64,000 nucleotides of DNA from Agrobacterium sp. 719_389 (GCA_943370295.1 CALRQL020000015.1:8515-72514); one strand, 5' to 3'; positions 10,012-64,000 are shown, counted from the first letter of the stretch. The notes: generated by a model from the letters alone, not told the origin. Made by a program: numbers and translations.

Positions 10012-10845
10012 TTATTGGGCTGTGGCAGGGGTTGTGGCAGCAGCAAATGCCTCTTCGTAAGTTTGGCAATAGCCCAATGCAACAAGCTCGTTGTCAATAT
10101 CAGTAAGGGCAACGGGTTTGCCGTCAGTTACCCAAATGGTATGCTCAAACTGTGCACTTAATTTTCCGTCAATCGTGCGGGCTGTCCAGCCGTCGCGCTT
10201 GTCTACTTTGCTGCGGGCCTTACCTGCATTTATCATCGGCTCCACAGTAAAAGTCATTCCTGCTTTCAACTTAGGGCCGCTATTCTTATCTCCAATATGG
10301 GTCACCTCAGGGTCTTCATGGAACTTTAAACCTACACCGTGTCCGCAAAACTCATACACAGTACTGTACCCGTGTTTGGTGGCGTGGCGGTTAATTGCAA
10401 AGCCGATGTTTCCTAAGTAATTACCAGGAGTGCATTGCTCAATACCCAACGACATTGCTTCTTTGGTTACTCGCACTAATTTTTTGGCATACTCATTCAC
10501 TTCACCCACTTCATACATTTTGCAGGTATCGCCAAAGTAGCCTTTTAAAATAGTGGTAACATCAATATTCACAATATCACCGTCGCGCAAGGCATACTGG
10601 TTGGGTACACCGTGGCATATCACATCGTTAGGGCTGATGCAACTACCGTATTTATAACCTTTGTAGCCTATGGTAGCAGGGGTAGCACCGTGGTCGCGTA
10701 CGTATTCCTCGCACTTTTTGTTTATATACTCGGTCGTGTTACCGGGTATCACAAATTGCTCAAGGTATTTAAGGGTTTGGGCAGCCAAAACACTGCTGTT
10801 CCTAATTCCCTCTATTTGTTCAAGATTTTTTAAAACAACTGCCAT
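10012..10845 (-). CDS. map: Type I methionine aminopeptidase
   Basis: HGVPN...GDIVNIDV...GYFGD...GHGVG..FHE...EPM...QFEHT metal-ligand pattern. Confidence 0.93.
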   Translation of the reverse strand: MAVVLKNLEQIEGIRNSSVLAAQTLKYLEQFVIPGNTTEYINKKCEEYVRDHGATPATIGYKGYKYGSCISPNDVICHGVPNQYALRDGDIVNIDVTTILKGYFGDTCKMYEVGEVNEYAKKLVRVTKEAMSLGIEQCTPGNYLGNIGFAINRHATKHGYSTVYEFCGHGVGLKFHEDPEVTHIGDKNSGPKLKAGMTFTVEPMINAGKARSKVDKRDGWTARTIDGKLSAQFEHTIWVTDGKPVALTDIDNELVALGYCQTYEEAFAAATTPATAQ

Positions 10846-10858
10846 TTTAATTAAGGTG

Positions 10859-10866
10859 CAAAGATA
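10859..10866 (-). promoter_or_regulatory. -7 box TATCTTTG upstream of map
   Basis: Exact TAnnTTTG 13 nt upstream of the ATG at 10845. Confidence 0.5.
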
Positions 10867-10972
10867 TCACTAAGTTTTAGGATTTGCTGAATTTGAAACT
10901 TTCAATTGCTTAGTGTTTGTTGTATTATTTGTGTTGTAGAGACCTTCATTTATCTTTTTGCTGGATTACCAA

Positions 10973-12049
10973 TTATTCAATCAGCTTGAATCCAACCGTT
11001 TTTACCCGTTTGGTAGGTATTCCGTCAACGTCCTCTTCCAAAATCATGGCTTGAGCTGCCAGTGTGCTAAACACCTGCTGCATATTTTGTATGGCTCCGG
11101 CGGGTACTTTAGCTGCTTGTAATTGCTGCAAAAGGTGCTCTCCGTTCAGCTTGGCTGATAGTTCGTTTAGTAGTAAAACCAACTTCGGACGGTTGGTCAC
11201 ACGGGCAGGGTTAGTTGCAAAACGCTCGTCAGCGGCAAGGTTAGCATCGCCTAATAATTCGCACAAATGTGCAAACTGTTGGTTGTTACCAACTGCTAAT
11301 ACTATTTGGTATCCATCGGCACAGTTTAAAATATCACCGTAGGGGCAAATATTGTAATGGGCATTGCCAATACGGTGTGCCACTTGGCCCGCCATTAGCC
11401 AGTTGGTGGCCATGTTGCTAAGCATGGCAAGGCCACTATCGTACAATGTAGTGCTAACATGGCAGCCATTACCTGTTTTTTCGCGTTGCCACAAGGCCAG
11501 TAATATCCCTTGTTTCAGTTGGTGTGCGGCCAATAAATCAATCATGGCAAAAGGCATTTTTACGGGGCCGCTATCGGGCGTACCGTTCATGCTCATGTAG
11601 CCTACTTCGGCTTGCAACACTACATCAAATGCCGCACGGGGGTCATTATTGCCGTAACCCGTCAACTCTGCATAAATAAGTTTCGGGTTAATGGCTTTAA
11701 ATGTATCGTAATCCATACTCAGCTTTTGGGCATCGCCGGGTTTATAATTGGCTACTAAAATATCAGCTGACTTTGCCAATTCATACACTTGCTGTTTTCC
11801 TTCGGGACTTTTTAAGTCAAGAAACAAATGTTGTTTCCCCCAGTTTACCGCGCAGAAGTATGCTGATAAAGGACTGTCAATGCTTTCGGTGGGTAATTTC
11901 CAACTGCGGGTTACATCGCCGCCTGTGGCCGGATTTTCAATCTTTATCACTTCCGCACCCAGTTCAGCCAAAAACATCCCCACAGCGGGGCCTGCCAATA
12001 CTGAAGACAGCTCAATAACTTTTATATCTTGCAGGGGCTTATCAAGCAT
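10973..12049 (-). CDS. CoA-transferase family III (CaiB/BaiF) protein
   Basis: MLDKPLQDIKVIELSSVLAGPAVGMFLAELGAEVIKIE N-terminus is typical of the family. The ATG at 12049 was chosen. Confidence 0.85.
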   Translation of the reverse strand: MLDKPLQDIKVIELSSVLAGPAVGMFLAELGAEVIKIENPATGGDVTRSWKLPTESIDSPLSAYFCAVNWGKQHLFLDLKSPEGKQQVYELAKSADILVANYKPGDAQKLSMDYDTFKAINPKLIYAELTGYGNNDPRAAFDVVLQAEVGYMSMNGTPDSGPVKMPFAMIDLLAAHQLKQGILLALWQREKTGNGCHVSTTLYDSGLAMLSNMATNWLMAGQVAHRIGNAHYNICPYGDILNCADGYQIVLAVGNNQQFAHLCELLGDANLAADERFATNPARVTNRPKLVLLLNELSAKLNGEHLLQQLQAAKVPAGAIQNMQQVFSTLAAQAMILEEDVDGIPTKRVKTVGFKLIE

Positions 12050-12427: not shown

Positions 12428-14515
12428 TTAGCGGATAAGTTTAACTACGCCGTTTTTGGTATAGGTACGTAATATTTTATCAAAGTACCCTTGGTAGCGC
12501 AACCTCCACAAATAAGTATCGGTAGGCAAAAAGGCATTTTTATAAGTGCCGTCCCAGCCTTTTTTAGGGTCGTTGCTTTCAAAAACCTTTTCGCCCCATC
12601 GGTTATATATTTCAATACCAAAATTAAAAACTTCGCTAAACACAGGGGCAAAAGTGTCGTTCAGCAAATCATTATTAGGGCTAAAGGCCTCGGGCATTAA
12701 TAGCCAGTTATCGCACAATGTAAAAATCTCTACCGAGTCTTGTGCCTCACATCCACTGGTGTTGGTTACATACACCCTATACCAACCTGTTTTTGTGGCG
12801 GTATGGGTTGCGTTGGTGGTTAAACCCGGTTCCCATAAATACGTTGCAAAGCCACTTGCTGCATTTAGGTTCAACGTTTCCCCCTCTTCTTCACACAAAA
12901 AATAAGTACTGTCAAAAAAATCTACTTCTAATTTGGGGTAATAATTAATAGCTATAGTGTCACTTTCAGCGCATTTGGGGCCTATACTTATTCTTAGGGA
13001 ATATGTCCCCGCAGTATCTACCAACAACATCGTGTCTTTGCTGCCGTTGCTCCACGTATAGTCAAAATTGCCTTTAGGGCCTTGCAGGGTTATTGAGTTT
13101 TCAAAGCAAAGCGTGGTATCGGTACCTAAGTTTACTTTTGGCGGGGTTATAATCGTTACTTCTTTAAAAATACTGTATTTGAGTCCGCATAAGAACCAAC
13201 TTAACGATACGTTGTAGGAGCCTGTATCGGTAAAGGTGTGCGAAGGAATATCTTTGGTTGAGGTGTTGTTTGCACTTGCAGGGTCGGCAAAATCCCACAA
13301 TAGCGAATCTAAAAATGGCATGTTCGACGGTGTAAACACTGTAGTATCTTTGTAACAGGTGTTTTTTACATCAATTTTAGTGGTAATTACTGTATTTCCC
13401 GGTGTTGAAACATCGTACATAATTATGGGAAATCTCACTGCTGTTTTACCATTACTTAACGTAATGTTATTTGTCATATAGGCAGCCGCCAGCGAAAACA
13501 AATCAGGTTTTTCAATCACATCTATACTCCCGCTTGGGTTGCCCGCTACGTTTTTTGTAATGTATATCTTACCGTCAGGTCCGAGTTTAATGTCGTTGTA
13601 GGCTTGGGCACTGTTTGCTATCTCTTGGCTCGACTGGAAATCGGTGCCGCTGTATTGTACTACCCGCCCTTGGCTTTGACCAAAAATTGCATACATCTGC
13701 AAATTAGAAGGGGAGAAGGCTATACTTTTAGCGTTGTTCCATCCTGCACCAATGGGTAGGTTTCTGGGCGTTCCAACTGTTCCGCAGGTTTTGCTGAAAC
13801 TATATTGGTTGATGGCAGCCGTTGTGGGTGAGTTAAATGAAATAAAAATTTTATCTCCCGAACGATTGGTAACCAAATCGCCTAACGTAGTTATACCGTT
13901 ATGAAAACCCATAATCGACCTCACAGGGGCTTGTATTCCCGCATTTGTAATCGGATAACACTCAAAAGTATCGTTTCCGTTACTGCCTCTAAATGTTATC
14001 AGCCAATAACTGTCGGTAGTTCCGTGTCTTGCTATGGCAAATTTGTTAGCAATGGCGGGTGCCAATAAATTATCAGTAGAAATTACCTTACCCAATCCGC
14101 CGTTTTCAGTCATATCAATCAAGGCGTATCGAAGCTGGCCATTATTATACATGAATACATAGTGCTGGCCTGCCTTTACAGGACTGGGACAAGAAGTAAC
14201 GTGGCCGCAAACGGGGCTTGACAGTATGCTTGAACCGTTATCCATTACTGTATTGTTACGATTCCATACAGTAATACCATCGGTATAAAAAAGCAGCTGT
14301 CCGGTAGCCGCATCTGAGATTGTTGTACTAACAATGCTGGTAATTTGAGAAGCGTTTGCTACTTCAACTGGTGCTGTGCCCGCATTAAAGTTAAATGCTG
14401 TATTGGCACCAAAATACCAGTTTTCATAATGCCGTTGTGCCTGTGCTGTTGTTGCCCCAAGGCATAACCAACACATAAATAATATAGCACAAAGGCGGTT
14501 GTAATTCATACGCAA
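12428..14515 (-). CDS. Large secreted protein with T9SS type-B (gliding-motility-associated) C-terminal domain
   Basis: Signal peptide, then the C-terminal FSPNNDLLNDTF...YNRWGEKVFES...GWDGTYKN...TDTYLWRL pattern of the type-B sorting domain. Confidence 0.85.
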   Translation of the reverse strand: MRMNYNRLCAILFMCWLCLGATTAQAQRHYENWYFGANTAFNFNAGTAPVEVANASQITSIVSTTISDAATGQLLFYTDGITVWNRNNTVMDNGSSILSSPVCGHVTSCPSPVKAGQHYVFMYNNGQLRYALIDMTENGGLGKVISTDNLLAPAIANKFAIARHGTTDSYWLITFRGSNGNDTFECYPITNAGIQAPVRSIMGFHNGITTLGDLVTNRSGDKIFISFNSPTTAAINQYSFSKTCGTVGTPRNLPIGAGWNNAKSIAFSPSNLQMYAIFGQSQGRVVQYSGTDFQSSQEIANSAQAYNDIKLGPDGKIYITKNVAGNPSGSIDVIEKPDLFSLAAAYMTNNITLSNGKTAVRFPIIMYDVSTPGNTVITTKIDVKNTCYKDTTVFTPSNMPFLDSLLWDFADPASANNTSTKDIPSHTFTDTGSYNVSLSWFLCGLKYSIFKEVTIITPPKVNLGTDTTLCFENSITLQGPKGNFDYTWSNGSKDTMLLVDTAGTYSLRISIGPKCAESDTIAINYYPKLEVDFFDSTYFLCEEEGETLNLNAASGFATYLWEPGLTTNATHTATKTGWYRVYVTNTSGCEAQDSVEIFTLCDNWLLMPEAFSPNNDLLNDTFAPVFSEVFNFGIEIYNRWGEKVFESNDPKKGWDGTYKNAFLPTDTYLWRLRYQGYFDKILRTYTKNGVVKLIR

Positions 14516-33303: not shown

Positions 33304-33412
33304 TAATATTAATCATTTTTATAAATTGAAAGTTACAGGGTTTGTACTAATATAAACTCAGATTTTTATGCTTTCGCAAGTATTTGCAGAAATGAATTGC
33401 TGAAGAACTAGT

Positions 33413-34651
33413 TTAGCTTATCTTATACTTTTCGTCAAAGAAATTTAATACATCAAAGCTTTTTTGTGGTTCAGGGAATTTAGTTTTTGGTATACTAATA
33501 GAGTTTATAATAAGCCCTTGTTCTTCTTCGGTTAGCGAATCCCAAAACTTAGGTGATAAATAAAAATTCTGAACGTTTTCAATAATAAGTTTTGATATTT
33601 CAGCTTCAAAGGCTTCATTACTAATAGCTTTCAAGTTGTTTAAGTTTTTAAAAATTAAATCACTTCCTTTATCTGATTTAAACCTTCCAAGAATTATAAG
33701 ACTATTGTTGTTTTCATTTGGCAGAACAGTAATCATTATTGGAAATCCAAAATATATATTTTCATTGTTTGGAACTATATGCCCATTTCCAAAAGGAATA
33801 TGCAACATCATGGTTGAAGAGCAAACAATTGGACTTAAATAATCAGTTTCATAAGTCAAATATTCAAGTTGATCATATGAATTGCTTTTTAAATTAACTA
33901 TAAATAGCTCTCTATATTTTTCAGAGTTTGAAACCAAAAGCTCTTGACCCTCTTTTTGCTCACTTGTAGGTTTTGGAATTTCAAAATTAACTCCTTCGGT
34001 TCCTGAAACATTGGAAGCAGAATTTATAGTGCTTTTTAGAGAAAGAAGCTGTGAAGTTGGATTATTTGATGTCGATAATAGAAAATCTCTCTTTGATTTT
34101 TTTGAATGGTAAGTATAGGCGTAAGACCTCAACGAACTTAAAAAGCATCTCTCTTTTTCAGAAGAGAATGTGTTGTTATCAATTGGGTTAAAAATTTTAT
34201 CGTGATGAGAACAAAAACCAACAAATGTTGAAGCTTTAGAAATGCTGATAAGTTTGGGTTTAAGAATTCTCGATGATATCCTTTCTATATAATAGACTTG
34301 TTCATTCTTTGAAATATAACTAGAGATCTTTAAAAGCCCACTCTTTTTTGACAAACTATGTGCCTTGATGATGTCATCACTTTTGCATTCCGAGTCATTT
34401 ATGAAACAAGATTTTGATTGTTCCTCAAAATCCTTTTTGAGTGAGTCTTTAGCTATTTCTAATAGACAATTGAATTCTTTCTCAGAATAATTTTTGTTAG
34501 GTCTAATTACATTTTCAAAATAGTCTTCAAGTTTTTTATATCGAGAGTTAGGATTTCTGTCAATATTATTAACATCCTCGGAATTTTTTGGTATAGATTG
34601 AAGCAGTTTGATAATATCCTTTAATTGCTTCTCAATTGAATTTTCACTCAT
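33413..34651 (-). CDS. Orphan hypothetical protein in an AT-rich patch (Cys/His clusters; function unknown)
   Basis: 412-aa uninterrupted ORF in DNA of about 25-30% GC (hand counts). Motifs are CFINDSEC-x9-H and FVGFCSHHDKIF. No family recognised. Confidence 0.7.
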   Translation of the reverse strand: MSENSIEKQLKDIIKLLQSIPKNSEDVNNIDRNPNSRYKKLEDYFENVIRPNKNYSEKEFNCLLEIAKDSLKKDFEEQSKSCFINDSECKSDDIIKAHSLSKKSGLLKISSYISKNEQVYYIERISSRILKPKLISISKASTFVGFCSHHDKIFNPIDNNTFSSEKERCFLSSLRSYAYTYHSKKSKRDFLLSTSNNPTSQLLSLKSTINSASNVSGTEGVNFEIPKPTSEQKEGQELLVSNSEKYRELFIVNLKSNSYDQLEYLTYETDYLSPIVCSSTMMLHIPFGNGHIVPNNENIYFGFPIMITVLPNENNNSLIILGRFKSDKGSDLIFKNLNNLKAISNEAFEAEISKLIIENVQNFYLSPKFWDSLTEEEQGLIINSISIPKTKFPEPQKSFDVLNFFDEKYKIS

Positions 34652-34657
34652 AATAGA

Positions 34658-34700
34658 ACATAAGCCACTAAGATACAATATTGTTTTTAGTGGCTTATGT
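34658..34700 (-). terminator. Perfect 14-bp stem hairpin between dapD and the orphan gene
   Basis: acataagccactaa-N15-ttagtggcttatgt lies 35 nt downstream of the dapD stop and 7 nt upstream of the orphan ATG. There is no clear U-tract, so a terminator role is tentative. Confidence 0.45.
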
Positions 34701-34734
34701 CAAATGCTAAATGTAAAATGTTCAATGACCAATA

Positions 34735-37781: not shown

Positions 37782-37794
37782 AACTAATTATAAT

Positions 37795-38787
37795 TTATTC
37801 TCTATTCTTCATTAATTCCTCAGCAGCACTGTAGGCACTTATTTTCTTATCAGCCACCTGTTGTTCCAATTCTTTAATCTTTTTAACTACTGCCGGGTTA
37901 TGGTAAAAACGGTCTTTTAGCAGTTGCTCAATGGTTTCGTGCAGACGTTGTTTTTCCTGTTCGGTACGGTGGGTAGAAAAATATCCGTTTTGTTTCGTCA
38001 GCGTCTCGTATTCTGTAATAATATCCCAAACTTCGGGCACACCTTCCCCCGTCAGCGAAGAACAAATACCCACCTTTGCAGCCCACCCTGATTGTGTTGG
38101 CGGGTACAAATGCAGTGCATTCCGGTACTCAACAATAGCCCGTTGTGCTTTGGTTTTGTTCTCTCCATCCGCTTTGGTAATAATCAGCGCATCGCACATT
38201 TCCATAATACCGCGCTTAATTCCCTGCAATTCATCGCCTGCACCTGCCAGCATCAGCAGCAAAAAGAAATCTACCATGCCGTGAACAGCCGTTTCGCTTT
38301 GCCCTACGCCTACAGTTTCAATAATTACCGTGTCAAAGCCCGCTGCTTCACAAAGTATTACAGTTTCGCGGGTACTGCGGGTTACACCGCCCAAAGAGCC
38401 GCTGCTGGGCGAAGGACGTATAAACGCATTGGGGTGCGATGAAAGGTTTTGCATACGGGTTTTATCGCCCAATATGCTGCCGTGCGAGATTTGCGAAGTA
38501 GGGTCGATGGCCAGCACACACACCTTACGGCCTGCCTCTGCCAAAAACATCCCGAATGACTCTATAAACGTGCTTTTGCCCACACCGGGCACTCCCGTAA
38601 TTCCCACGCGGATGCTGTTGCCGCTGTGCGGCAGGCAGCGTTCTATTACCTCATTGGCAAGTTGTTTATCAGCCTCCAACGTGCTTTCAATCAAAGTAAT
38701 AGCTTTGCCCAATACCGCACGGTCGGCATTTAAAATGCCCGTATAGTATTCATCCGCCGTAAGGCGCTTGCGTTTAAAAGGAGTCAA
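37795..38787 (-). CDS. meaB: Methylmalonyl-CoA mutase-associated GTPase MeaB/ArgK
   Basis: GITGVPGVGKST P-loop, IIETVGVGQSE and ITKADG motifs. TTG start. Confidence 0.9.
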   Translation of the reverse strand: MTPFKRKRLTADEYYTGILNADRAVLGKAITLIESTLEADKQLANEVIERCLPHSGNSIRVGITGVPGVGKSTFIESFGMFLAEAGRKVCVLAIDPTSQISHGSILGDKTRMQNLSSHPNAFIRPSPSSGSLGGVTRSTRETVILCEAAGFDTVIIETVGVGQSETAVHGMVDFFLLLMLAGAGDELQGIKRGIMEMCDALIITKADGENKTKAQRAIVEYRNALHLYPPTQSGWAAKVGICSSLTGEGVPEVWDIITEYETLTKQNGYFSTHRTEQEKQRLHETIEQLLKDRFYHNPAVVKKIKELEQQVADKKISAYSAAEELMKNRE

Positions 38788-38823
38788 AATAGTATCGCAG
38801 CGGGTTGTTATACGCCCGTTCTA

Positions 38824-38831
38824 CAAAAGTA
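38824..38831 (-). promoter_or_regulatory. -7 box TACTTTTG upstream of meaB
   Basis: Exact TAnnTTTG 36 nt upstream of the TTG start at 38787. Confidence 0.4.
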
Positions 38832-38965
38832 TTTAATACAAACTTCTTTTTTACAAGCAATACTTTAGCCGTTTAAACTTTGCAACAGGTTGTGCTATAT
38901 TGGTACAAAAAACTTTTATCAGCGTGGGTGTTGAATGATTATTTCTGTAGGTAACACAAATTGGT

Positions 38966-39193
38966 ATGAAAAAAATTGAATTTTACGATGTGGGTAATCC
39001 GATTATTCAAAAGGATATTGATGATTTTGAAGCCAAGTTTAACATAAGACTTCCTCAAAACTATAAGAAACTGCTATTGAGGTTTAACGGGGGTATTCCT
39101 TCAGAAGATTGTATTTATATTGACATCAATAATGTTCCAATTGTTAGAAAAGAAATAGACATTAATACAATACTAAATTCGCAAGTAAAATAG
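38966..39193 (+). pseudogene. SMI1/KNR4 (SUKH-1) immunity-family protein, N-terminal fragment only
   Basis: FEAKFNIRLPQNYKKLLLRFNGG is the characteristic SMI1/KNR4 N-terminal motif. The ORF stops after 75 aa, whereas family members are usually about 130-180 aa. The next ORF begins 1 nt after the stop. Confidence 0.55.
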
Positions 39194-39194
39194 T

Positions 39195-39467
39195 ATGATA
39201 ACCAAAGAAGTTGCTAGAAAACTGGCAGAAGAGTATTTGAAACAAAACTCTCGTGATTTCACATTTATCGATTCCAATGATAAAATTTATTTTGAAGAAA
39301 CCCATGTTATTCCTTTTGGAGCAAAACTTGGTGAAGTTCACAGCACTTATAGTATTGGCTTTGGTGAGGTTTGGGGTGATGAAGTTAAAGTGTCATTCGT
39401 CATGTTAGATGCAAAAGATGGTGCGATACTATATTTAATTACACCTCAAAAATTTGTTAACCCTTAA
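39195..39467 (+). CDS. Small YrhB/PepSY-like immunity-type protein
   Basis: MITKEVARKLAEEYLKQ N-terminal helix, then beta-rich ...VSFVMLDAKDGAILYL. 90 aa, AT-rich. Confidence 0.55.
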   Translation: MITKEVARKLAEEYLKQNSRDFTFIDSNDKIYFEETHVIPFGAKLGEVHSTYSIGFGEVWGDEVKVSFVMLDAKDGAILYLITPQKFVNP

Positions 39468-39567
39468 TTTTTTTGCAGTATATAATTGAAAATATAATAT
39501 AGTTTTGATATTGAAAAACACCCTAAAGTTTTAGAGAAATTGAAATTAATCAATTATTATATTGATT

Positions 39568-39912
39568 ATGATAACACCAAAACAAGCATTGGAGATTGCT
39601 AAAAATTATTTAAAAGAGAAAAAGAGGAGTTTTACATCAATAAAATGGGGAATGGGTGCGCGAGCGGTGGGGGTTAGAATTGATGTAAATAATGTTTTGT
39701 ACGGCATTTTTGAAAACAACGAAGTTTGGTATGATCAGGATAAAGAAAACAGAAGGTATATCTTTTTCGCAGAATCGGGACAATACACTTTTGTTTTTAA
39801 TAAAACGGAAATGAATTTTGAGTTACTGGATCGTTATAGTGGGGATGTAGTTGAAGTTTTTGATTCATTTAACAAAATGCTAGAACGTATATTAAAGCTA
39901 ATGCTTACTTAA
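39568..39912 (+). CDS. Small YrhB/PepSY-like immunity-type protein
   Basis: The MITPKQALEIAKNYLKEKK N-terminus parallels the preceding ORF. ATG at 39568. Confidence 0.55.
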   Translation: MITPKQALEIAKNYLKEKKRSFTSIKWGMGARAVGVRIDVNNVLYGIFENNEVWYDQDKENRRYIFFAESGQYTFVFNKTEMNFELLDRYSGDVVEVFDSFNKMLERILKLMLT

Positions 39913-39929
39913 CGTATTTCTATAGTTTA

Positions 39930-39974
39930 CCTACTATTCGGGGATTTTTTTTTGTTTGCAGTACATTGCTGATA
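39930..39974 (+). repeat. Cassette junction repeat, copy J1 (core only)
   Basis: cctactattcggggattttttttt-gtttgcagtacattgctgat recurs at 40445-40491 and 41113-41157, and partly at 41785-41806. Confidence 0.85.
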
Positions 39975-39988
39975 AATGAAATTTACTC

Positions 39989-40300
39989 ATGAAACATAAA
40001 GAAGAAGAGATTGTAAGCATTGCAAAAAACGTTTTAAGGAAACTTGAAATTTCATATGACAATTCTTTTGGTATGAATATAAATGTAGTGGATAAAAAAG
40101 ACAATAGATTTTCTAAACCTACTTGGGTTGTAGCTTATCAGATTGCGATACAATTTACCCCTAGGCGACTTGCTTTTTTGTATATTGATGATGAAACAGG
40201 GGCACCCTTGTTAATATTTCACAGTCATGCAAATGTGTATCTAACCCTTAATGAGGACGGAACAATAGAAAAAACGGTTAAACGCTATGGGGAGGATTAG
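39989..40300 (+). CDS. Small PepSY-like immunity-type protein
   Basis: EEIVSIAKNVLRKL helix...WVVAYQ...LYIDDETGAPLL pattern. 103 aa. Confidence 0.55.
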   Translation: MKHKEEEIVSIAKNVLRKLEISYDNSFGMNINVVDKKDNRFSKPTWVVAYQIAIQFTPRRLAFLYIDDETGAPLLIFHSHANVYLTLNEDGTIEKTVKRYGED

Positions 40301-40426
40301 CTCTATATGGGCATGGGAAACGGCCACAATAGTATAATTAAAAGGCATTGACGACAGCAGCTTGAAGGAACAAAAGTATTACCCATACGACACTGTGCAT
40401 TGGTAGTACTATACTGAGTATATTTT

Positions 40427-41092
40427 ATACAATCCCTGAGTTGTTTCCCTACTATTCGGGGATTTTTTTTTGTTTGCAGTACATTGCTGATGAAAATCTA
40501 TTCGAGTGTTAAAAAGATTTAGGGTGCACAAATAGAATAAGATACCATGTCACAAACATTCACAATATTATCAAAGGAATATATTCAACAAAAAGAGCTA
40601 CACACTATACTCAGGGATATTGCCCAAAAAATACCAACAGTAAGCATTCAAAAAGAAATAATTTATAAAGGAAATTTTGAGTTTACCATACAAAGGGTGG
40701 AAAAATCGTTACCTAAAGTATATGGTGAGCATGAAATTGCAGTTATTACATTTATGCTTTTGTCTGAAGAAGAATTTTATAAAAGTGAAGAAAGTATTAA
40801 TCAATTTATGGTTAGCATGAGTGAGGAACTTCGAAAATCATATAGGAGTTTAATTATTATCAACACGGATCATGCTTCTTTATTATGGAATGATTTTTTA
40901 AATATTTTTATGGAAAAATATCCTGATATGGTACTAACTGGTGATTCATTTGATGATTCAGGAGAATTAGGGTATTATACTTATGAACACTTAAAAGCGG
41001 GTCGTAAACTTGATGAGCGTGCTTGGTTCTGGGAAAACCCTGATGAGTTGCTGCGTCGTAGCAATGCTATTGTATAGATACAAGCAACCTTT
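40427..41092 (+). repeat. Tandem duplication unit 1 (junction J2 plus 176-aa ORF)
   Basis: 666-bp period. The junction, leader and ORF ends are near-identical to unit 2. Confidence 0.9.
40547..41077 (+). CDS. Hypothetical protein, paralogue A of tandem pair
   Basis: 176 aa, about 80-85% identical by eye to the ORF at 41213-41746. Confidence 0.7.
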   Translation: MSQTFTILSKEYIQQKELHTILRDIAQKIPTVSIQKEIIYKGNFEFTIQRVEKSLPKVYGEHEIAVITFMLLSEEEFYKSEESINQFMVSMSEELRKSYRSLIIINTDHASLLWNDFLNIFMEKYPDMVLTGDSFDDSGELGYYTYEHLKAGRKLDERAWFWENPDELLRRSNAIV

Positions 41093-41758
41093 CAATACAA
41101 TCCCCGAAAGGTTTCCCTACTATTCAGGGATTTTTTTTGTTTGCAGTACATTGCTGATGACAATCTATTCGAGTGTTAAAAAGATTTAGGGCCACTAATA
41201 GAATAAGATACCATGTCACAAACATTCACAATATTATCAAAGGAATATATTCCACAAAAAGAGCTACACACTATACTAAAGGATATTGCCAGTATGATTC
41301 CATCCGTAAACATTCAAGAGGAGAGAATTAATAGTGATGGGTTTTTAGTGTTTACTATTCAACGGGTAGAAAAATCCTTACCTAAAGTATATGGAGAATA
41401 TGAAATTGCGGTTATCAAATTTATGCTTGAAACGGAAGAAGGGTTTCATAAAAGTGAAGAAAGTATTAATCAATTTATGGTTAGCATGAGTGAGGAACTT
41501 CGACAAGCTTACAGGGATTTAATCATTATTAATACGGATCATGCTTCCTTATTATGGTATGATTTTTTAAATATTTTTATGGAAAAATATCCTGATCTAA
41601 TACTGGAGAGCGGTATAGAGGATGATTCAGGAGAATTAGGGTATTATACTTATGAACACTTAAAAGCGGGTCGTAAACTTGATGAGAGTGCTTGGTTCTG
41701 GGAAAACCCTGATGAGTTGCTGCGTCGTAGCAATGCTATTATATAGATACAAGCAACC
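41093..41758 (+). repeat. Tandem duplication unit 2 (junction J3 plus 177-aa ORF)
   Basis: See unit 1. It is followed by a partial third junction, J4, at 41759-41806. Confidence 0.9.
41213..41746 (+). CDS. Hypothetical protein, paralogue B of tandem pair
   Basis: 177 aa with the same N- and C-termini as paralogue A (MSQTFTILSKEYI... / ...WFWENPDELLRRSNAI). Confidence 0.7.
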   Translation: MSQTFTILSKEYIPQKELHTILKDIASMIPSVNIQEERINSDGFLVFTIQRVEKSLPKVYGEYEIAVIKFMLETEEGFHKSEESINQFMVSMSEELRQAYRDLIIINTDHASLLWYDFLNIFMEKYPDLILESGIEDDSGELGYYTYEHLKAGRKLDESAWFWENPDELLRRSNAII

Positions 41759-41770
41759 TTTCAATACAAT

Positions 41771-41806
41771 CCCCGAATGGTTTCCCTACTATTCGGGGAT
41801 TTTTTG
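41771..41806 (+). terminator. Hairpin plus T-tract in junction copy J4 (probable terminator of the array)
   Basis: ccccgaat-N12-attcgggg is a perfect 8-bp stem followed by ATTTTTTG. The equivalent stems in J2 and J3 each carry 2 mismatches. Confidence 0.55.
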
Positions 41807-41844
41807 TTCTTGGACGTTTTATTTGTTATCGCGTTCGTAAAATA

Positions 41845-42210
41845 TTACCCCGCCGCAAACGAAGTGCCGCAGCCGCAGGTAGTTGTAGCATTTGGGTTAC
41901 TGAATGTAAAGCCTTTGTTATTCAGTCCGTCTTCCCAATCTACCTGCATACCTACCAAATACATTAAGTGGGCTTTGTTCATCAGTATCTTAATACCGTT
42001 GGCCATGTACTCCGTATCACCTTCTTCCTTACTGTCAAAAGCCAACAGGTACGATAAGCCCGAACAGCCGCCGCCTTTTACACCAATACGCAATCCCTGC
42101 TCGTCAGAAATACTCAGCGTGTTTATCAGCTTTAATAATTCGGTACGCGCACCTTCAGTAAACGTAATGGGCGAAGGGGCAAGGGTTTTGGGTGCATCTA
42201 CTACTTCCAT
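41845..42210 (-). CDS. Iron-sulfur cluster insertion protein (HesB/IscA/ErpA family)
   Basis: GCSGLSY...C-terminal CGCGTSF cysteine ligands. Confidence 0.88.
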   Translation of the reverse strand: MEVVDAPKTLAPSPITFTEGARTELLKLINTLSISDEQGLRIGVKGGGCSGLSYLLAFDSKEEGDTEYMANGIKILMNKAHLMYLVGMQVDWEDGLNNKGFTFSNPNATTTCGCGTSFAAG

Positions 42211-42279
42211 AATGGGTATGGTTTTATACTGCAAATATCGCAAAAACAAGGCCAATAGCACAGCCGTGTCAAATTGCCA

Positions 42280-42780
42280 TTATTTGTAACGTTTAACGGT
42301 AACCAATTTATTAAACCCGGTAAACATAAGGTTTGCCTCGGCATGGTTGCTTAAAATATCCCTTATATCCACTGCCAAGGTGTACATGGCGGGTTTTTCT
42401 TCACACCCTTTGGGCTCACCCTTAGAAATACGGCAGCGCAAACGTACAGGGTAAGTTTTTAGCTCAATCTTACTTTGGTATAACTTAAAATCATCCTTTT
42501 TGCAGTTGAAATAACTGCTGATGGTGATGAACAAAATGCTGTCTTTTTGCTCAGTATGCACAATGTTAAAATCCACAGCTCCTTCGTCAAGACCAAAAAG
42601 ACTATCGCTTACAACAATTCGCTTCACAAATACAGTAAGGGTATCGGTTTGGTAGTTTACCAGCATTTTCAGCGTATCCGTGTGGGGCGAAAGAGGCTTT
42701 ACGGCTACATTTTTCCCCGTTTTACAACTATAGATACTGATAGCGGCCAGCAAACCGATAATTACTACAACTACTCTCAT
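42280..42780 (-). CDS. Hypothetical lipoprotein
   Basis: MRVVVVIIGLLAAISIYSC lipobox. No domain recognised. Confidence 0.6.
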   Translation of the reverse strand: MRVVVVIIGLLAAISIYSCKTGKNVAVKPLSPHTDTLKMLVNYQTDTLTVFVKRIVVSDSLFGLDEGAVDFNIVHTEQKDSILFITISSYFNCKKDDFKLYQSKIELKTYPVRLRCRISKGEPKGCEEKPAMYTLAVDIRDILSNHAEANLMFTGFNKLVTVKRYK

Positions 42781-42803
42781 TATTCCTGTTACTCTTTATC
42801 CTG

Positions 42804-44453
42804 TTATTGTTTAATAAACCTGCCCGTATAGGTAGTGTTGCCATTGTTGACACTCACTATATAAACGCCGGCAGGCAGTGTTTCTATATCTAACCAACCG
42901 TTTTGCAAGGCAATAGTTTGTAATTGTTGCCCCAAAACGGTAGTAATGGTTGCATTGTCAAACTCACCGCCGCTAATGCGCAGCCAATTGTTGGCAGGAT
43001 TGGGATACAGTGTCAGTTTATCTTTTTCAACGGTTTCGCCTACACTTTCGGGGTATAAGTATGCCCCGCTTACGCTGGTAGCTCCTGTATTGGTCGAGTC
43101 AAGCCAATCTTTCAAACGGCTGCGCGGTGTTGAGCCGTTTTTGTCCCAATGCCAATCCAACCGGCCGTAAAAATCAGTACCGTTCAACTTAGTACAAGAT
43201 GCACTTCCGCCCGTAAGGGTTCCAATCAGATACCCTTTTTTATTAAATAATGCTGAACCCGATGAGCCGGGTTCGGTAACTCCATGACCGTTGGCCGTGG
43301 CCGACCATAGCACTTCCCAATGGGTATTATCGGGCGAAGTAGGATAGGGTGCCCCTTTTTTCAGCGGCCATGTAGAGGTAGATATTTTTTTGATATCGTA
43401 TTTAGGGTGATGGATGCTTACTGCGCTATCGGTATAATCTTCGGTAGTATCTAAACTCCAACCTGAATAATACACTCCGTAGCTTGGGGGGATGGGTTGG
43501 GTAAGCTCAAGCAACAAAAAGTCGCTCCCCAATTCACCGCCTTTGTCTTCTGTATGAGCCAGCACCTTTGAGCCCATAATTTTATTATCAGCAAGGTTGC
43601 CTTCGCTCATGGGATTTGCACACGAGGGGGCTTGGTAGTTAAACGTAAACAGCCAGTATTTAAACATGGTATCGTTGCTTAAACTATCATTAAAACCTAA
43701 ACCGCAGTGCATGGCCGTTAACAAATACGGTTTAATTTTTTGCGAGGTATTGTTTACCATCGTTCCGGTACACCATTGGGTATTAAAATCAGTATAACTT
43801 AAAATGCGCACCACCGAATTGCGTTGGTTTCTCCAGTTATCACCTTCGCTGCAATTTACATTTACATTACAGCTTGATGCATCACCAAAGCCATCGGTTT
43901 GGGTTTCGTTGGGGTCGGTATATCGGTAAATGTAGCAAAGCCTTTCAATTATTAAATGTGCAGTATTGCTGGTTCCGTTAGGCACAAAATACTCAATCAC
44001 TGCTTCTTGCCCTGCAACGGGAGTGGTAGAAATAATGTTTTGGGTAGAAAAATCAGCCGTTTTGTATGTGTTTTTTGCTGCCGGTGTATTATTACCATAA
44101 ACAATTAGCGATGCGCCATTGGGCATATTTTCCATCTTACCCAGCAGGGTAATGGCTTTTGCTCCGTCAAGCTTCACTTTTAACCGCCAAACAGAACCTT
44201 TATCGGTTGTAATCCACTCACCCGAGTTGTAGGGGGTTAGGTTTACAGCTAATAATCGACCCACGTTCTCAGGGTGGTAAGGCTTTTTATGGCTGTTATC
44301 TTCGGCATACATTTGCTCGGCATCCAACCCATTTATGGTATGCAAGGCGTTTGGGGCAATGGCAGGCAAGCCGTTTTGTTGCCCTTGTGCAGTTAAAGCA
44401 AGGCCAAAGGCCATTACTAATGCAGTATATTTTGGTAACGATTTAATACCCAT
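42804..44453 (-). CDS. Trypsin-like (S1) serine endopeptidase with T9SS type-A C-terminal domain
   Basis: TAMHC (His), GSDFLLLEL (Asp) and EPGSSGSALF (Ser) triad contexts. C-terminal LYPNPANNWLRI...GVYIVSV...GRFIKQ. Confidence 0.8.
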   Translation of the reverse strand: MGIKSLPKYTALVMAFGLALTAQGQQNGLPAIAPNALHTINGLDAEQMYAEDNSHKKPYHPENVGRLLAVNLTPYNSGEWITTDKGSVWRLKVKLDGAKAITLLGKMENMPNGASLIVYGNNTPAAKNTYKTADFSTQNIISTTPVAGQEAVIEYFVPNGTSNTAHLIIERLCYIYRYTDPNETQTDGFGDASSCNVNVNCSEGDNWRNQRNSVVRILSYTDFNTQWCTGTMVNNTSQKIKPYLLTAMHCGLGFNDSLSNDTMFKYWLFTFNYQAPSCANPMSEGNLADNKIMGSKVLAHTEDKGGELGSDFLLLELTQPIPPSYGVYYSGWSLDTTEDYTDSAVSIHHPKYDIKKISTSTWPLKKGAPYPTSPDNTHWEVLWSATANGHGVTEPGSSGSALFNKKGYLIGTLTGGSASCTKLNGTDFYGRLDWHWDKNGSTPRSRLKDWLDSTNTGATSVSGAYLYPESVGETVEKDKLTLYPNPANNWLRISGGEFDNATITTVLGQQLQTIALQNGWLDIETLPAGVYIVSVNNGNTTYTGRFIKQ

Positions 44454-53290: not shown

Positions 53291-54457
53291 CTACCTGCTG
53301 ATGACCATTTTTGATACGGTAGTATTTCCGTTAACGGTAAAGGCAATTGTATAAATCCCGTTTGGTAATTCGCTAATGTTTATGGGGTTTTGCGGTTGCT
53401 TCTCTATATAGCAAGGCTGCCCTAATGGGTTGTAAATGGTTAACTCATCCACAATCCCCTCTATGTAAATAGTTTCATTGGCAGGATTGGGATAAGCGGT
53501 TACTCCTGTCTGTGCGTTGTCAACCCCTAACGATGAAGGAGGTTTAGGGTTGGTTGTCAATCGTTTCCAATCAAAATAAGCATATACGGGGTAGTGGTCA
53601 GAAGTGTTGTTGCTAAAATTAGCAATGTAATTTCCGGCATTGTCAAACACCTTTGATGATGCAGGAATGTACAAACTGTCCATGCTTTTTGCTATCATGA
53701 TGTGGTCAATCATTTTATTGCCAAAAGCCCATGAGTTTTTGCCGGCATCCGTAAGTTGTTTGGTGGCAAAAAGGTAACCATCGTTCAAAAAATTACCGTA
53801 AGGGGTAGGCATATTGTTATAAAGCGAGGTATTCAAATCATCGTTCCAATCGCCCAGTATTATGTATTTCTTTCCGGCAAGGTATTGCTCAACATAGGTT
53901 TTTAAATGCCCCGCAGCTTCTTTGCGGCGATTGTACGAATCTTGCTTTTCAGTAGTATTACCGGTATGTGCCTTCATGTGTACTACAATACAGTACAGAG
54001 TGTCTACTCGGTCGTTTTGTTTAGTCCTAAGAGCCACTTGCAATGGTGGTCGCGTAGCAAAAGCACTGTTAGCATACTGGTTCAATATGTTTTTGCTTAA
54101 ATCGGGTATCAACTCAAACATACTTTTCTTATATAGTAAGCACATTTTTTGTGTTGCCTGAAAGGTTGAGTTAATGCCGCCGTAGGTGCTAAACAAAGCA
54201 TCGCTAAGGTTGAAAAAAGTATTGGCATTTGCCATTTCCTGCAAAGCAATAATATCAAACCCTGTTTGATTGATAACGGTTTTAACATTGTTAAACTGTA
54301 GGTTTTCGTCGGTAGGACCATAGCCGCTTTCACCCAGCCATTCCACATTCCAAGTGGCAATATCCAGCAAAGTATCGTTCCCCAATTTAGGTATTTGAGC
54401 AACTGCCGAAATCGAAACCATGGCGACCGCCAACACCAAACAAAACCGTTTAATCAT
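53291..54457 (-). CDS. Endonuclease/exonuclease/phosphatase (EEP) family protein with T9SS type-A C-terminal domain
   Basis: IATWNVEWLG, DIIALQE, GDWNDD and SDHYPV EEP motifs. C-terminal AYPNPANETIYI...GIYTIAF...MVISR. Confidence 0.85.
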   Translation of the reverse strand: MIKRFCLVLAVAMVSISAVAQIPKLGNDTLLDIATWNVEWLGESGYGPTDENLQFNNVKTVINQTGFDIIALQEMANANTFFNLSDALFSTYGGINSTFQATQKMCLLYKKSMFELIPDLSKNILNQYANSAFATRPPLQVALRTKQNDRVDTLYCIVVHMKAHTGNTTEKQDSYNRRKEAAGHLKTYVEQYLAGKKYIILGDWNDDLNTSLYNNMPTPYGNFLNDGYLFATKQLTDAGKNSWAFGNKMIDHIMIAKSMDSLYIPASSKVFDNAGNYIANFSNNTSDHYPVYAYFDWKRLTTNPKPPSSLGVDNAQTGVTAYPNPANETIYIEGIVDELTIYNPLGQPCYIEKQPQNPINISELPNGIYTIAFTVNGNTTVSKMVISR

Positions 54458-62470: not shown

Positions 62471-64000
62471 TTACTGTTTTATGAATTTAGTCGTATTAAA
62501 TCCTATTGAAGGATTATGTAAAGTTAAAAAATATAATCCGTTTGGCAATATACTGATGGGCAGTGTATTTGTTTCAAAAGTGTTTATAACCCCTGTGTTA
62601 ATAGTTTTTCCTGCTATATCCGTAATAGTATAGGTGTATATATCTTGTTGTGCAATATCTATTGTGATTACAGTTGAGGCAGGATTAGGATACACGTTTA
62701 TTACATTATATTTTTTTACTGTAATTGGTTTTATACCTACCAAAGTTGTGTCTTTAATAAAGTTTTTACCCACGTGCGGGCGCATCATCAATGTGCCGGG
62801 TATTTCTGATAAATACCATTTTCCAGTGGTATTAAAATATAAACCGGGATTGCCTATTGCCTTGCGATAACTGGTGTAATTCCTATCCCAGCCTACGTTT
62901 AAGTGGAAGGTAGATGTTTGCACCCAGCCAATGTAAAACTCTCCTTTTACTGCAATGGCACTATCCAAAACATACGTATGATATCCGTTAATAGAATCGG
63001 TATAGGTAGGATAGGTCACTAATTTAGTGTACAACAGTTCTTCTTGTGAGCCATTTGGAGTGATACTTTGCCATACAGCAAGGTTAAAGGCTCTCTTAAT
63101 AGTATCCTCTGCCTGAAAATAATATACCGAAATTGCCCGCAAACTATCGGGTTTATTAAGCCTGAAACGGTAGGCAATTTTGCCTGAACCTCGTTTTAGC
63201 CCGTAACCTGTTTCAGCAGTACCATCGTCGTAGGCATAATAATTGGCAAACGTAAATTTACGGGTAACAGAATCATTGGCAATTCTAAAGTTGGCTCCTG
63301 TAATTTTTAAAAATTCAGCAGCAGTAAATGTTACTGTATCCTCAGTGCGGGCAACAGCATTGTAATTTGAAGCGAAACCAAAGCCTTTTTCGCTAAACGG
63401 GTCGATTGAAAAACCGCTACCGGGCTGGTTAACTACCAAATTACCTGCATCGTCACGTACTTGTCGGTTAAAAACATCAACCGTGCGGCCTTGGTCAAAT
63501 AAATTACTTAAATACCCTCTTGTACTGTCGGTAATCTCCAGTGATTCAAAAGTTTTGAATTGGTCGTAGGGCATTTCTTGATATTCGCTTAAAAACGACA
63601 TGGGTTTTTGCGAAACCGCAACATCAGCAAAAACACTGTCTGCTGCCGTGCGGTTGCGTTCCATATAAATGTAATCAAGGTGCCATTGGCCTACTCCGCC
63701 TATGTAGCTTTGATAATTGATAAAACGGAATTGGAAACCTGCATGGAAATACTCGGGAGCTTCAAGTTTTAAAATAGCGGGTTTGAAATTACTTAACGCA
63801 ATACCTGGGGTAGACCATACGGTGTACCAAAACCCTAAGTTGTTTTTAAATTGTAGAATTAAAGAGTCTTTGCCTTGTAATGGTTGAAAACTCAAGCCTT
63901 GTGCTTGATAAAAAAAGCTCAGGTAAATATTGTTGCCGCTGCTATACGCAGAAATATCAATGGGTTGTGAAGTAAGAGTGTCGCAAGGGCCGTGTATATC
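62471..64000 (-). CDS. Secreted protein with T9SS type-A C-terminal domain; 5' end beyond window edge
   Basis: The frame stays open from 63895 to base 64000 (hand translation ...DIHGPCDTLTSQPIDISAYSSGNNIYLSFFYQAQG-LSFQ...). C-terminal VYPNPASTVITI...GLYFLTL...KFIKQ. Confidence 0.8.
   Translation of the reverse strand, partial: DIHGPCDTLTSQPIDISAYSSGNNIYLSFFYQAQGLSFQPLQGKDSLILQFKNNLGFWYTVWSTPGIALSNFKPAILKLEAPEYFHAGFQFRFINYQSYIGGVGQWHLDYIYMERNRTAADSVFADVAVSQKPMSFLSEYQEMPYDQFKTFESLEITDSTRGYLSNLFDQGRTVDVFNRQVRDDAGNLVVNQPGSGFSIDPFSEKGFGFASNYNAVARTEDTVTFTAAEFLKITGANFRIANDSVTRKFTFANYYAYDDGTAETGYGLKRGSGKIAYRFRLNKPDSLRAISVYYFQAEDTIKRAFNLAVWQSITPNGSQEELLYTKLVTYPTYTDSINGYHTYVLDSAIAVKGEFYIGWVQTSTFHLNVGWDRNYTSYRKAIGNPGLYFNTTGKWYLSEIPGTLMMRPHVGKNFIKDTTLVGIKPITVKKYNVINVYPNPASTVITIDIAQQDIYTYTITDIAGKTINTGVINTFETNTLPISILPNGLYFLTLHNPSIGFNTTKFIKQ

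Follow-up and report, generated by a model that had tools for sequence, protein, structure and literature searches.

The stretch under study is 64,000 nucleotides of the assembly labelled Agrobacterium sp. 719_389 (GCA_943370295.1 CALRQL020000015.1:8515-72514), referred to here as the window, in which an array of six small open reading frames (ORFs; O1 to O6) is bounded by two housekeeping genes, meaB and a gene of the IscA/ErpA family (hereafter erpA). All six ORFs are on the plus strand, occupy positions 38966–41746 and have 75–177 codons. An earlier note, made by inspection of the sequence, had described an AT-rich array of six immunity-type ORFs at this place, and its outline of the block was accurate; every ORF was recovered where it had been placed, and the block (38867–41763) had a G+C (GC) content of 32.4%, against 41.8% for the remaining window. 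This was the minimum-GC stretch of 2.9 kb within the 64 kb. Individual ORFs ranged from 28.5 to 33.7% GC, while the values for meaB and erpA were 48% and 47%. The features of the block and its flanks were as follows, where the toxin-bearing alleles and L-numbered contigs are those of the relatives described below.

37795–38787, minus strand: meaB, the left housekeeping flank (Pfam MeaB, 6.6e-103)
38867–38965, plus strand: left junction segment of unplaced origin, in place of the region upstream of the toxin gene in toxin-bearing alleles; common to L088, L089 and L090
38966–39193, plus strand: O1, 75 aa, apparently a chimeric relic with the 5' end of a SUKH gene fused to the 3' end of a toxin gene
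39195–39467, plus strand: O2, 90 aa, a putative immunity gene, intact and PepSY-like, of the type paired with Tox-MPTase4 toxins
39562–39912, plus strand: O3, 116 aa from TTG (114 from ATG), apparently a deletion chimera with a PepSY-like N-terminus and a SUKH/YrhA C-terminus
39933–39975, plus strand: incomplete copy of the inter-cassette element (hairpin 3' arm, T run and TTTGCAGTACATTGCTGAT); repeat families D4 and D5
39989–40300, plus strand: O4, 103 aa, a putative immunity gene, intact, of a second small and distantly PepSY-like family that adjoins another Tox-MPTase4 subtype elsewhere
40302–40406, plus strand: 3' remnant of a gene for PoNi (PoNe immunity), namely its final ~32 codons, interrupted by an in-frame stop and starting directly after the O4 stop
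40427–40524, plus strand: inter-cassette element (terminator-like hairpin, T run, TTTGCAGTACATTGCTGAT and the O5 leader)
40547–41077, plus strand: O5, 176 aa, tandem paralogue of O6 (82% amino acid identity)
41095–41191, plus strand: inter-cassette element (hairpin, T run, motif and the O6 leader)
41213–41746, plus strand: O6, 177 aa, a putative immunity gene of a very rare family, the same as the gene after toxin P0004 in L083 and L084
41764–41811, plus strand: terminal terminator-like hairpin (14-bp stem and T run) that closes the array before erpA; also in L083, L085 and L088
41845–42210, minus strand: IscA/ErpA-family gene, the right housekeeping flank (Pfam Fe-S_biosyn, 1.6e-16), constant in position across alleles

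Strains with flanks 93–98% identical to the window differed in what they carried between meaB and erpA, and this variation among close relatives had been anticipated. The relatives compared (L numbers denote contigs or loci, and P numbers proteins) included Logan contigs, the NCBI assembly GCA_008933805.1 (L088) and 14 loci from JGI metagenomes. A look-up of the exact O6 protein led to two Logan contigs from two samples, L083 and L084, where the interval consisted of a gene for a 724-aa toxin (P0004), followed 8 nt later by the exact O6 gene; O1 to O5 were absent. In L085 (allele B), the gene for a 683-aa relative of P0004 (P0005) was followed by a 149-codon SUKH gene (SUKH149), a 105-aa homologue of O4, a 189-aa ORF and a 232-aa PoNi gene. 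L088 and L089 (allele C) were toxin-less, with the order O1, O2, a frameshifted PepSY-like gene, a 141-codon SUKH gene (SUKH141), SUKH149 and O4; their set of intact immunity genes was different from that of the window and overlapped with it. Finally, L090 had a left end of the window type (O1, O2 and O3) that was 100% identical over 38501–39959, where the contig stops. Two toxin-bearing and two toxin-less alleles were found in this way at one chromosomal site in one species. The left breakpoint in all alleles was window position 38866, where L083 and L085 ceased to be homologous to the window, and the right end was the terminal hairpin preceding erpA. The nearest species-representative genome (L003), with a MeaB protein 82% identical, showed no synteny at the site and so provided no empty-site comparison, and a look-up by the exact ErpA protein returned one short contig only.

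The window itself contained no intact toxin gene. A tblastn search of the 64 kb with P0004 found nothing, and the sole toxin remnant was a relic of the last ~22–25 codons of a toxin gene within O1 (39120–39193); it is for these reasons that the locus is termed 'orphan'. The statement that the block contained neither a toxin nor a recombinase gene therefore held for intact genes only as regards the toxin, since the 3' relics of a toxin gene and of a PoNi gene both lay within it. It stood in full for recombinases, which were absent within ~10 kb on either side in all alleles; the neighbouring genes there were housekeeping genes or belonged to Pfam families carried as cargo by the type IX secretion system (T9SS).

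The toxins found at this site and in relatives were proteins of ~700 aa. An alignment of P0004 and its relatives (alignment A2) showed that the N-terminal ~530 aa were conserved, ending in EALKNGKFIEW, after which the sequences diverged completely into an exchangeable C-terminal domain of ~150–190 aa. The N-terminal region was common to six database relatives and the 14 JGI metagenome loci, the latter being 24–32% identical in this region. It was in the sister alleles and relatives, and not in the window itself, that unrelated C-terminal domains were seen on the common N-terminal region: Tox-MPTase4 in P0006, P0007, L100, L097 and L105/L098 (Pfam, 2e-21 to 1e-9), an ADP-ribosyltransferase in L094 (Pfam, 6.6e-7) and a bacterial EndoU domain in L096 (Pfam, 4.2e-8). 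An HExxH-type motif, HEFMH, was visible in P0007. The C-terminus of P0005 gave a weak HNH-like signal below the cut-off, and the C-terminal domains of P0004, L092, L093 and L099 had no recognisable Pfam family. One stretch of the P0004 domain, EIDIADEKYIFECK, resembles a PD-(D/E)xK motif by eye; it had no profile support and the assignment is not claimed.

The N-terminal region had no Pfam or NCBIfam match and no convincing sequence match in the PDB. The only PDB match below E 0.01 was to FtbJ, the tape-measure protein of the Listeria tail-like bacteriocin monocin (E 0.0023), and covered profile positions 249–425 of alignment A2. These positions correspond to the hydrophobic helical middle of the region, where compositional bias is high, and the match was therefore treated as a lead rather than a relationship. 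An AlphaFold2 (AF2) model of the toxin had a pLDDT of 41 and was too poor for a structure search. A conserved protein of ~1130 aa, without Pfam or NCBIfam match, was encoded directly upstream of the toxin in four lineages (L086 36–3446; L099 2502–5882; L091 2–745; L092 42–482). Both this protein and the closest toxin relatives, P0004–P0007, start with MSEP or MSEI, and it may be a delivery partner of the toxin.

In the full-length loci (~10 metagenome loci together with L083, L085, L086 and L091), an ORF of 91–153 aa began within a few nucleotides of the toxin gene, and its family co-varied with the C-terminal domain of the toxin. Members of the O2 family followed the L091-type MPTase4 domain in 5 loci, and members of the O4 family followed the L086-type in 2; the two MPTase4 subtypes, which differed in their C-terminal tails, were matched in this manner to two immunity families. 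Homologues of SUKH149 came directly after the toxins of L085 and L092. When O6 behind P0004 is included, homologues of O2, O4, O6 and the SUKH part of O3 were all found directly downstream of toxin genes, as the earlier note had predicted for genuine immunity genes. Orphan Tox-MPTase4 C-terminal fragments of 85–87 aa were also observed, in L095 (10544–10801) and L102 (5073–5336), of which the latter was followed by an O4-like ORF; such fragments are typical of displaced toxin-tip cassettes.

O1 scored above the cut-offs of Pfam SUKH_6 (1.7e-9) and SMI1_KNR4, but over profile positions 2–42 of 119 only, and a complete SUKH domain (~120 residues) was not present. Its first 159 nt (38966–39124) matched L088 10660–10818, the 5' end of the full-length, 141-aa SUKH141 gene, at 96.9% identity. 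From ~39110–39120, overlapping the end of this SUKH copy, the match was instead to the 3' end of toxin genes, in both DNA and protein. Residues 49–73 were 48% identical to the last 25 aa of toxin P0007, and L091 2920–3003 was 72% identical to window 39120–39209 at the DNA level. The tail of O1, ending in DINNVPIVRKEIDINTILNSQVK at the stop codon, matched the C-terminal tail of the O2-linked MPTase4 toxins, its motif recurring in four MPTase4 toxins (the alignment scored 68, shuffled sequences 24 +/- 4, and none of 2000 shuffles reached the observed value). The O1 stop falls 1 nt before the O2 start, and this stop/start junction, AAAATAGTATGATAAC, was conserved at the DNA level. On these comparisons, O1 is apparently the scar of a deleted toxin gene, with O2 seemingly still in its original place directly behind. 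O1 had previously been considered a truncated SUKH protein; the profile match was real, while the structure proved to be a fusion of a SUKH 5' end with a toxin 3' relic, and not a simple truncation. A further possibility, that O1 and the C-terminus of O3 were one SUKH gene split by a 560-bp insertion with an 18-nt direct repeat as target duplication, was rejected because allele C shows O1 to copy SUKH141 and the C-terminus of O3 to come from SUKH149, and because the O1 tail is a toxin relic.

O2 shared 33–42% identity with the ORF directly after the Tox-MPTase4 toxins of L100, L097, L105 and L098, and 31% with the ORF after the L091 toxin (L091_94, E 2e-15). The homologue from L091 passed the Pfam PepSY threshold (28.8 bits, cut-off 24), with other homologues at 21–23 bits. 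The O2 protein was identical in four assemblies, namely L088, L089, L090 and the window.

An N-terminal helix common to O2, O3 and O4 had been recognized previously and is real. The accompanying assignment of all three to YrhB/PepSY-like proteins found some support for PepSY, through the homologues of O2, and none for YrhB: O2–O6 produced no profile match to YrhB or to any named Imm family (Pfam and NCBIfam, E up to 1), and O3 was a chimera. Residues 1–41 of O3 derive from a PepSY-like gene, the one that allele C carries in frameshifted form, and residues 41–116 are the C-terminal half of SUKH149. The C-terminal 72 residues matched the NCBIfam YrhA model (NF038335; 6.5e-19, 68.3 bits, cut-off 55) at positions 78–149 of 150 only, there being no full-length match, while the C-terminal 76 aa were 100% identical to the SUKH149 protein after toxin P0005 in L085. 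Relative to L088, the window lacked 10451–10557 and 10605–11398. O3 thus appears to be derived from allele-C-like DNA by two deletions, which would have brought the final 76 codons of SUKH149 up against 41 codons from the PepSY-like pseudogene.

O4 was 67% identical to the 105-aa homologue of L085 and 85% identical to the L088 copy. It was also related to the 100-aa ORF directly after the Tox-MPTase4 toxin P0006 in L086 (33%, E 4e-18), and a homologue followed the orphan MPTase4 fragment of L102. Comparison with the O2 family by hhalign gave a probability of 57% (E 1e-4), a weak link through the N-terminal helix and a (I/L)D..TG motif. When O4 (39989–40300) was aligned with L088 11707–12018, all 23 of 23 nucleotide differences fell in the first 36 codons and none in the last 67, a pattern indicating either that a recombination event ended at this point or that the N-terminal helix is hypervariable. 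For these first 36 codons, non-synonymous divergence (dN) was 0.24 and synonymous divergence (dS) 0.30, giving a dN/dS of ~0.8.

Directly behind O4, window 40308–40474 was 94% identical to L085 14214–14380, and its translation (SIWAWETATIV, a stop, then LKGIDDSSLKEQKYYPYDTVHW and a second stop) aligned with the C-terminus of PoNi. The intact PoNi gene of L085 encodes 232 aa with both domains (PoNi_N 3.5e-14, PoNi_C 3.9e-23). Of a gene with PoNi_N and PoNi_C, the window retained no more than the final ~32 codons, and these contain an internal stop. PoNi is described, in the available text of PMC6688995, as the immunity partner of PoNe DNase effectors.

The last two ORFs had been described as diverged tandem paralogues of unknown family. 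Tandem paralogues they are, within a duplicated unit of ~668 bp that includes terminator and leader; being 82% identical, they are not very diverged, and O6 can now be named by its context. O6 was identical at 534/534 nt to the gene after P0004, and the perfect tract extended over 41211–41777 (567 bp), while the surrounding sequence differed by ~4.5% in the erpA region and ~3% in meaB. This zero-substitution tract points to a very recent cassette exchange, or a sweep. Between O5 and O6, dN/dS was 0.33; dS was 0.4–0.5 over the first 130 codons and 0.10 over the last 47, from which it follows that the pair is mosaic. O5 may encode immunity to a variant form of the P0004-type toxin domain.

The O5/O6 family had only 3 members among 5.8e9 clusters (O6, O5 and a 41%-identical protein, P0003), and a HMMER pass over 1.8e9 representatives added one weak match of 129 aa. 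P0003, the only distant relative with genomic context, lies at the start of a contig beside dxs (L001 110–622), and the contig break may reflect a repeat. Two long proteins, P0010 (3077 aa) and P0012 (1231 aa), had 13 and 8 stretches respectively that matched profile positions ~6–33 of the family, the N-terminal strand-helix; these may be a repeat motif or an effect of composition. The AF2 model of O6 was of moderate quality (pLDDT 73, pTM 0.73) and had an alpha/beta fold. The structural comparison proposed in the earlier note gave no credible neighbour, in that no Foldseek match in the PDB had E below 0.01, the best (E 0.01, TM below 0.4) being noise. Nor did PDB sequence profile searches with the O2, O4 and O5/O6 families and the P0004 C-terminal domain find anything significant.

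It could be argued that the O5–O6 tandem is an artefact of assembly, in which the alleles of two strains were joined through their near-identical 3' end and terminator repeat and only one copy is real. O5 has been recorded in this metagenome-assembled genome (MAG) alone, and the O5 and O6 units share 190-nt stretches of 96–98% identity. Independent short-read Logan contigs from sample ERR9580632, of the same strain, matched the window at 100% over 38501–39959 and 41748–43272 and broke exactly at the repeats. Such breaks are, however, what genuine multi-copy repeats are expected to produce, and the three hairpin copies and two leaders carry private substitutions that make every junction distinct. 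An artefact is accordingly regarded as very unlikely, and would leave the nature of the block unchanged.

The cassettes of the array were separated by a conserved element made up of a hairpin of terminator type (AATCCCCGAA...TTCGGGGA), a run of T and the 19-nt motif TTTGCAGTACATTGCTGAT. The motif was found at three places in the window, where chance would give 0.04. A rival explanation is an island acquired from elsewhere. On this explanation, the block would resemble an acquired interbacterial defence (AID) cluster, a recombinase-associated AID (rAID) cluster or an integron, each cassette having been captured singly by a site-specific recombinase at the inter-cassette element, irrespective of any resident toxin. 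In agreement with this are the co-oriented genes of 75–177 codons, their low GC, the 3–4 occurrences of the element, far above expectation, and the 567-bp tract around O6, whose identity in other strains is suggestive of a recent transfer. But there was no recombinase in the ~10 kb on either side of any allele, and the element was also present within a toxin-bearing allele, between SUKH149 and the O4 homologue of L085. Differences between alleles were explained by deletions at short repeats and homologous replacement. An intact toxin occupies this site in sister strains, and the array of the window is headed by the 3' relic of one; since this is so, the block does not appear to be an island of the AID/rAID type, and acquisition by recombinase is considered highly improbable. 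Hence the earlier note, which took the block for an acquired island of orphan immunity genes, seems to have been right about the orphan immunity genes and wrong about their acquisition; the array was apparently made by loss of the toxin in place.

Of the six ORFs formerly thought to be of immunity type, O2, O4, O5 and O6 look intact, while O1 and O3 are fusion debris. Together with the PoNi fragment, these comprise four apparently intact immunity genes and three relics. The debris gives some substance to the notion that the whole locus is dead, that is, that all six ORFs are unexpressed or functionless remains of a lost toxin locus and confer no protection. The status of O1, O3 and the PoNi fragment as debris is clear, and the first 36 codons of O4 have a dN/dS of ~0.8 relative to the L088 copy. 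The region upstream of the toxin has been replaced; the Bacteroidota promoter motif TAnnTTTG was found once, before O3, and not before O1, O2, O4, O5 or O6, and a scan for sigma-70-type promoters performed at chance level (17 found, 14.6 expected). Yet O2, O4, O5 and O6 are full-length relative to their toxin-linked homologues, O2 is unchanged in four assemblies, the dN/dS of O5/O6 is low, and O6 has no substitution over 567 bp where its flanks differ by 3–4.5%. In addition, the other toxin-less allele has kept a different and overlapping set of intact genes. A dead locus is therefore thought unlikely.

With regard to the observed allelic series, the homologies and the adjacency of toxin and immunity genes, the block is probably the immunity-only remnant of a chromosomal polymorphic toxin–immunity locus. 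The outcome agreed with the earlier note on the points where it had allowed itself to be overturned: the profiles matched SUKH (O1), YrhA (the C-terminus of O3) and PepSY (via homologues of O2), the interval varied between relatives, and homologues stood beside toxin genes.

Several points weigh against this interpretation. The array is strictly 'orphan' as judged within 64 kb, and a toxin copy elsewhere in the genome may undo the label. O5 and the window-type O4 were recorded in this one assembly, so the order O4–O5–O6 is that of a single MAG. O2, O4, O5 and O6 had no Pfam or NCBIfam match (E up to 1); the kinship of O2 with PepSY comes through its homologues, and that of O4 through the weak hhalign probability. 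The C-terminal domain of P0004 is assumed to be a toxin from its position in the architecture, having no family match, and toxicity and neutralization in general are predicted from sequence comparison. Toxin loci were situated amid housekeeping genes (htpG, topoisomerase IB, ftsZ, rmuC and gcvT) rather than in secretion-system clusters. Lastly, the window no longer has the promoter region of the toxin, and the promoter scans defined no promoter for the array.

The proposed history, which takes in expression, binding, neutralization, the route of delivery and the order of rearrangements, would be as follows. The meaB–erpA interval is a hotspot in this species, where a single toxin gene is normally followed by the immunity gene that belongs to it and then by older immunity genes that have been displaced. 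In the strain of the window, nearly the whole toxin gene would have been deleted or replaced, leaving its last ~22–25 codons behind a copied SUKH 5' fragment, now O1. Further deletions between short repeats would then have produced O3 and the PoNi relic. O2 and O4, as PepSY-like proteins, would be probable inhibitors of the two Tox-MPTase4 metallopeptidase subtypes; PepSY is known as a peptidase-inhibitor or propeptide domain (Pfam description), which fits a metallopeptidase target and makes mechanistic sense. O6 would be cognate to the toxin domain of P0004, and O5/O6 a new family. Each immunity protein would bind and block the matching toxin domain injected into the cell by conspecific neighbours that carry a toxin, such that the strain would be protected without making the toxin. 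Protection against toxin carriers of the same species is the most likely function, and is favoured by the four intact genes, purifying selection on O5/O6, the O6 tract free of substitutions and the existence of a second toxin-less allele.

Comparison with known systems revealed both resemblances and departures. According to the available text of PMC12247911, rAID clusters are defined by an adjacent predicted tyrosine recombinase, and their cognates are type VI secretion system (T6SS) effectors. The array is similar to rAID and AID-1 of gut Bacteroidales, as far as that text describes them, in the size and orientation of its genes and in SUKH content, and may be so in its intergenic motifs (here a conserved hairpin and a 19-nt motif between the cassettes), with six plus-strand ORFs here of which four are credible immunity genes. 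It is similar also in belonging to a genome without the cognate toxin and presumably protected against the toxins of neighbours, absence of the toxin being known here for 64 kb. It differs in having no tyrosine recombinase and a toxin family unlinked to T6SS genes, and in lying at the exact site of a resident toxin, with a toxin relic at its head; moreover, one of its immunity genes matches the cognate copy at 100% identity, while divergence is typical of rAID genes.

At cdiA and rhs loci, and in the auxiliary T6SS clusters of Vibrio cholerae, recombination exchanges C-terminal toxin domains and immunity genes, the immunity genes so displaced collect downstream along with fragments of toxins, and immunity outlasts the toxin. 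The array seems closest in its logic to these orphan trails. There, the main toxin normally persists upstream, whereas two of the alleles here have lost the toxin gene altogether; the N-terminal region is, in addition, not that of CdiA, Rhs or a known T6SS adaptor (no Pfam or NCBIfam match).

Several of the toxins passed the Pfam model of Tox-MPTase4, a domain described by Zhang et al. (2012). The table in PMC3482391, so far as its available text goes, links the domain to RHS repeats, lists no immunity family for it and does not place Bacteroidetes among its lineages. The toxins here differ in their N-terminal region and Bacteroidota host, and are consistently followed by PepSY-like proteins. 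A text search of the literature, with partial coverage, found no paper on a PepSY immunity protein for Tox-MPTase4. The PepSY domain itself (PF03413) is the inhibitory propeptide domain of M4-type metallopeptidases. Likeness to it consists of an N-terminal helix followed by a beta-sheet, a D-x-x-T-G-x-[VIL] motif, the L091 homologue of O2 above the Pfam threshold and the proposed role in peptidase inhibition. The proteins here are, by contrast, stand-alone and cytoplasmic, of ~90–100 aa and encoded after a toxin, and O2 itself is below Pfam detection. For SUKH/SMI1_KNR4/YrhA, the models matched O1 at its N-terminus and O3 at its C-terminus, and full-length copies of 141 and 149 aa exist in sister alleles, while the copies in the window are fragments fused to unrelated sequence, so that neither forms a complete SUKH domain. 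PADLOC returned no meaningful match, and a reading as anti-phage defence is unsupported.

Other features of the window concern its surroundings. Several proteins with the C-terminal domains of T9SS cargo (CHU_C or Por_Secre_tail) are encoded at 12428–14515, 42804–44453, 53291–54457 and 62471–63895, which means that the organism has a type IX secretion system; they include a trypsin-like protease and a protein of the endonuclease/exonuclease/phosphatase family. The toxins have no such tail. A second low-GC spot (0.29) that varies between strains was found at 33307–34734, where the window has a 421-aa ORF (33413–34678, minus strand) with no Pfam or NCBIfam match; L083, L088 and L089 have a 438-aa gene at this spot and L085 has none. 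At the junction of crp and meaB (37782–37794), other strains hold 2–3 extra genes (L085 7528–8852; L088 5841–8607). These encode proteins of 126/127 and 280/310 aa, together with a 460-aa protein with a T9SS tail in L088. The window is without them, and the entire neighbourhood of meaB is therefore strain-variable.

Orphan immunity genes are thought to influence survival in dense bacterial communities, and documented cases mostly concern T6SS, contact-dependent inhibition (CDI) or Rhs systems in Proteobacteria and gut Bacteroidales. The concept is thus known; the protein families built into this array are undescribed. More tentatively, and with rather less assurance than attaches to the remnant itself, the N-terminal ~530 aa might represent an undescribed class of toxin delivery in Bacteroidota, the PepSY-type proteins the missing immunity partners of Tox-MPTase4, and O5/O6 a family with a new fold, while the allelic series might reflect a turnover of armed and immune-unarmed states sustained by very recent transfer of immunity cassettes. 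The toxin delivery region is without a description in Pfam or NCBIfam, and the locus would extend the concept to new families rather than alter it. Within a single environmental species of Bacteroidota, it provides a clean series of natural alleles in which the deletion scars are still visible, with one immunity gene, O6, common to armed and unarmed strains without a single substitution. It also offers candidate pairs of toxin and immunity protein, these being the PepSY-like proteins with Tox-MPTase4, and O6 with the C-terminal domain of P0004.

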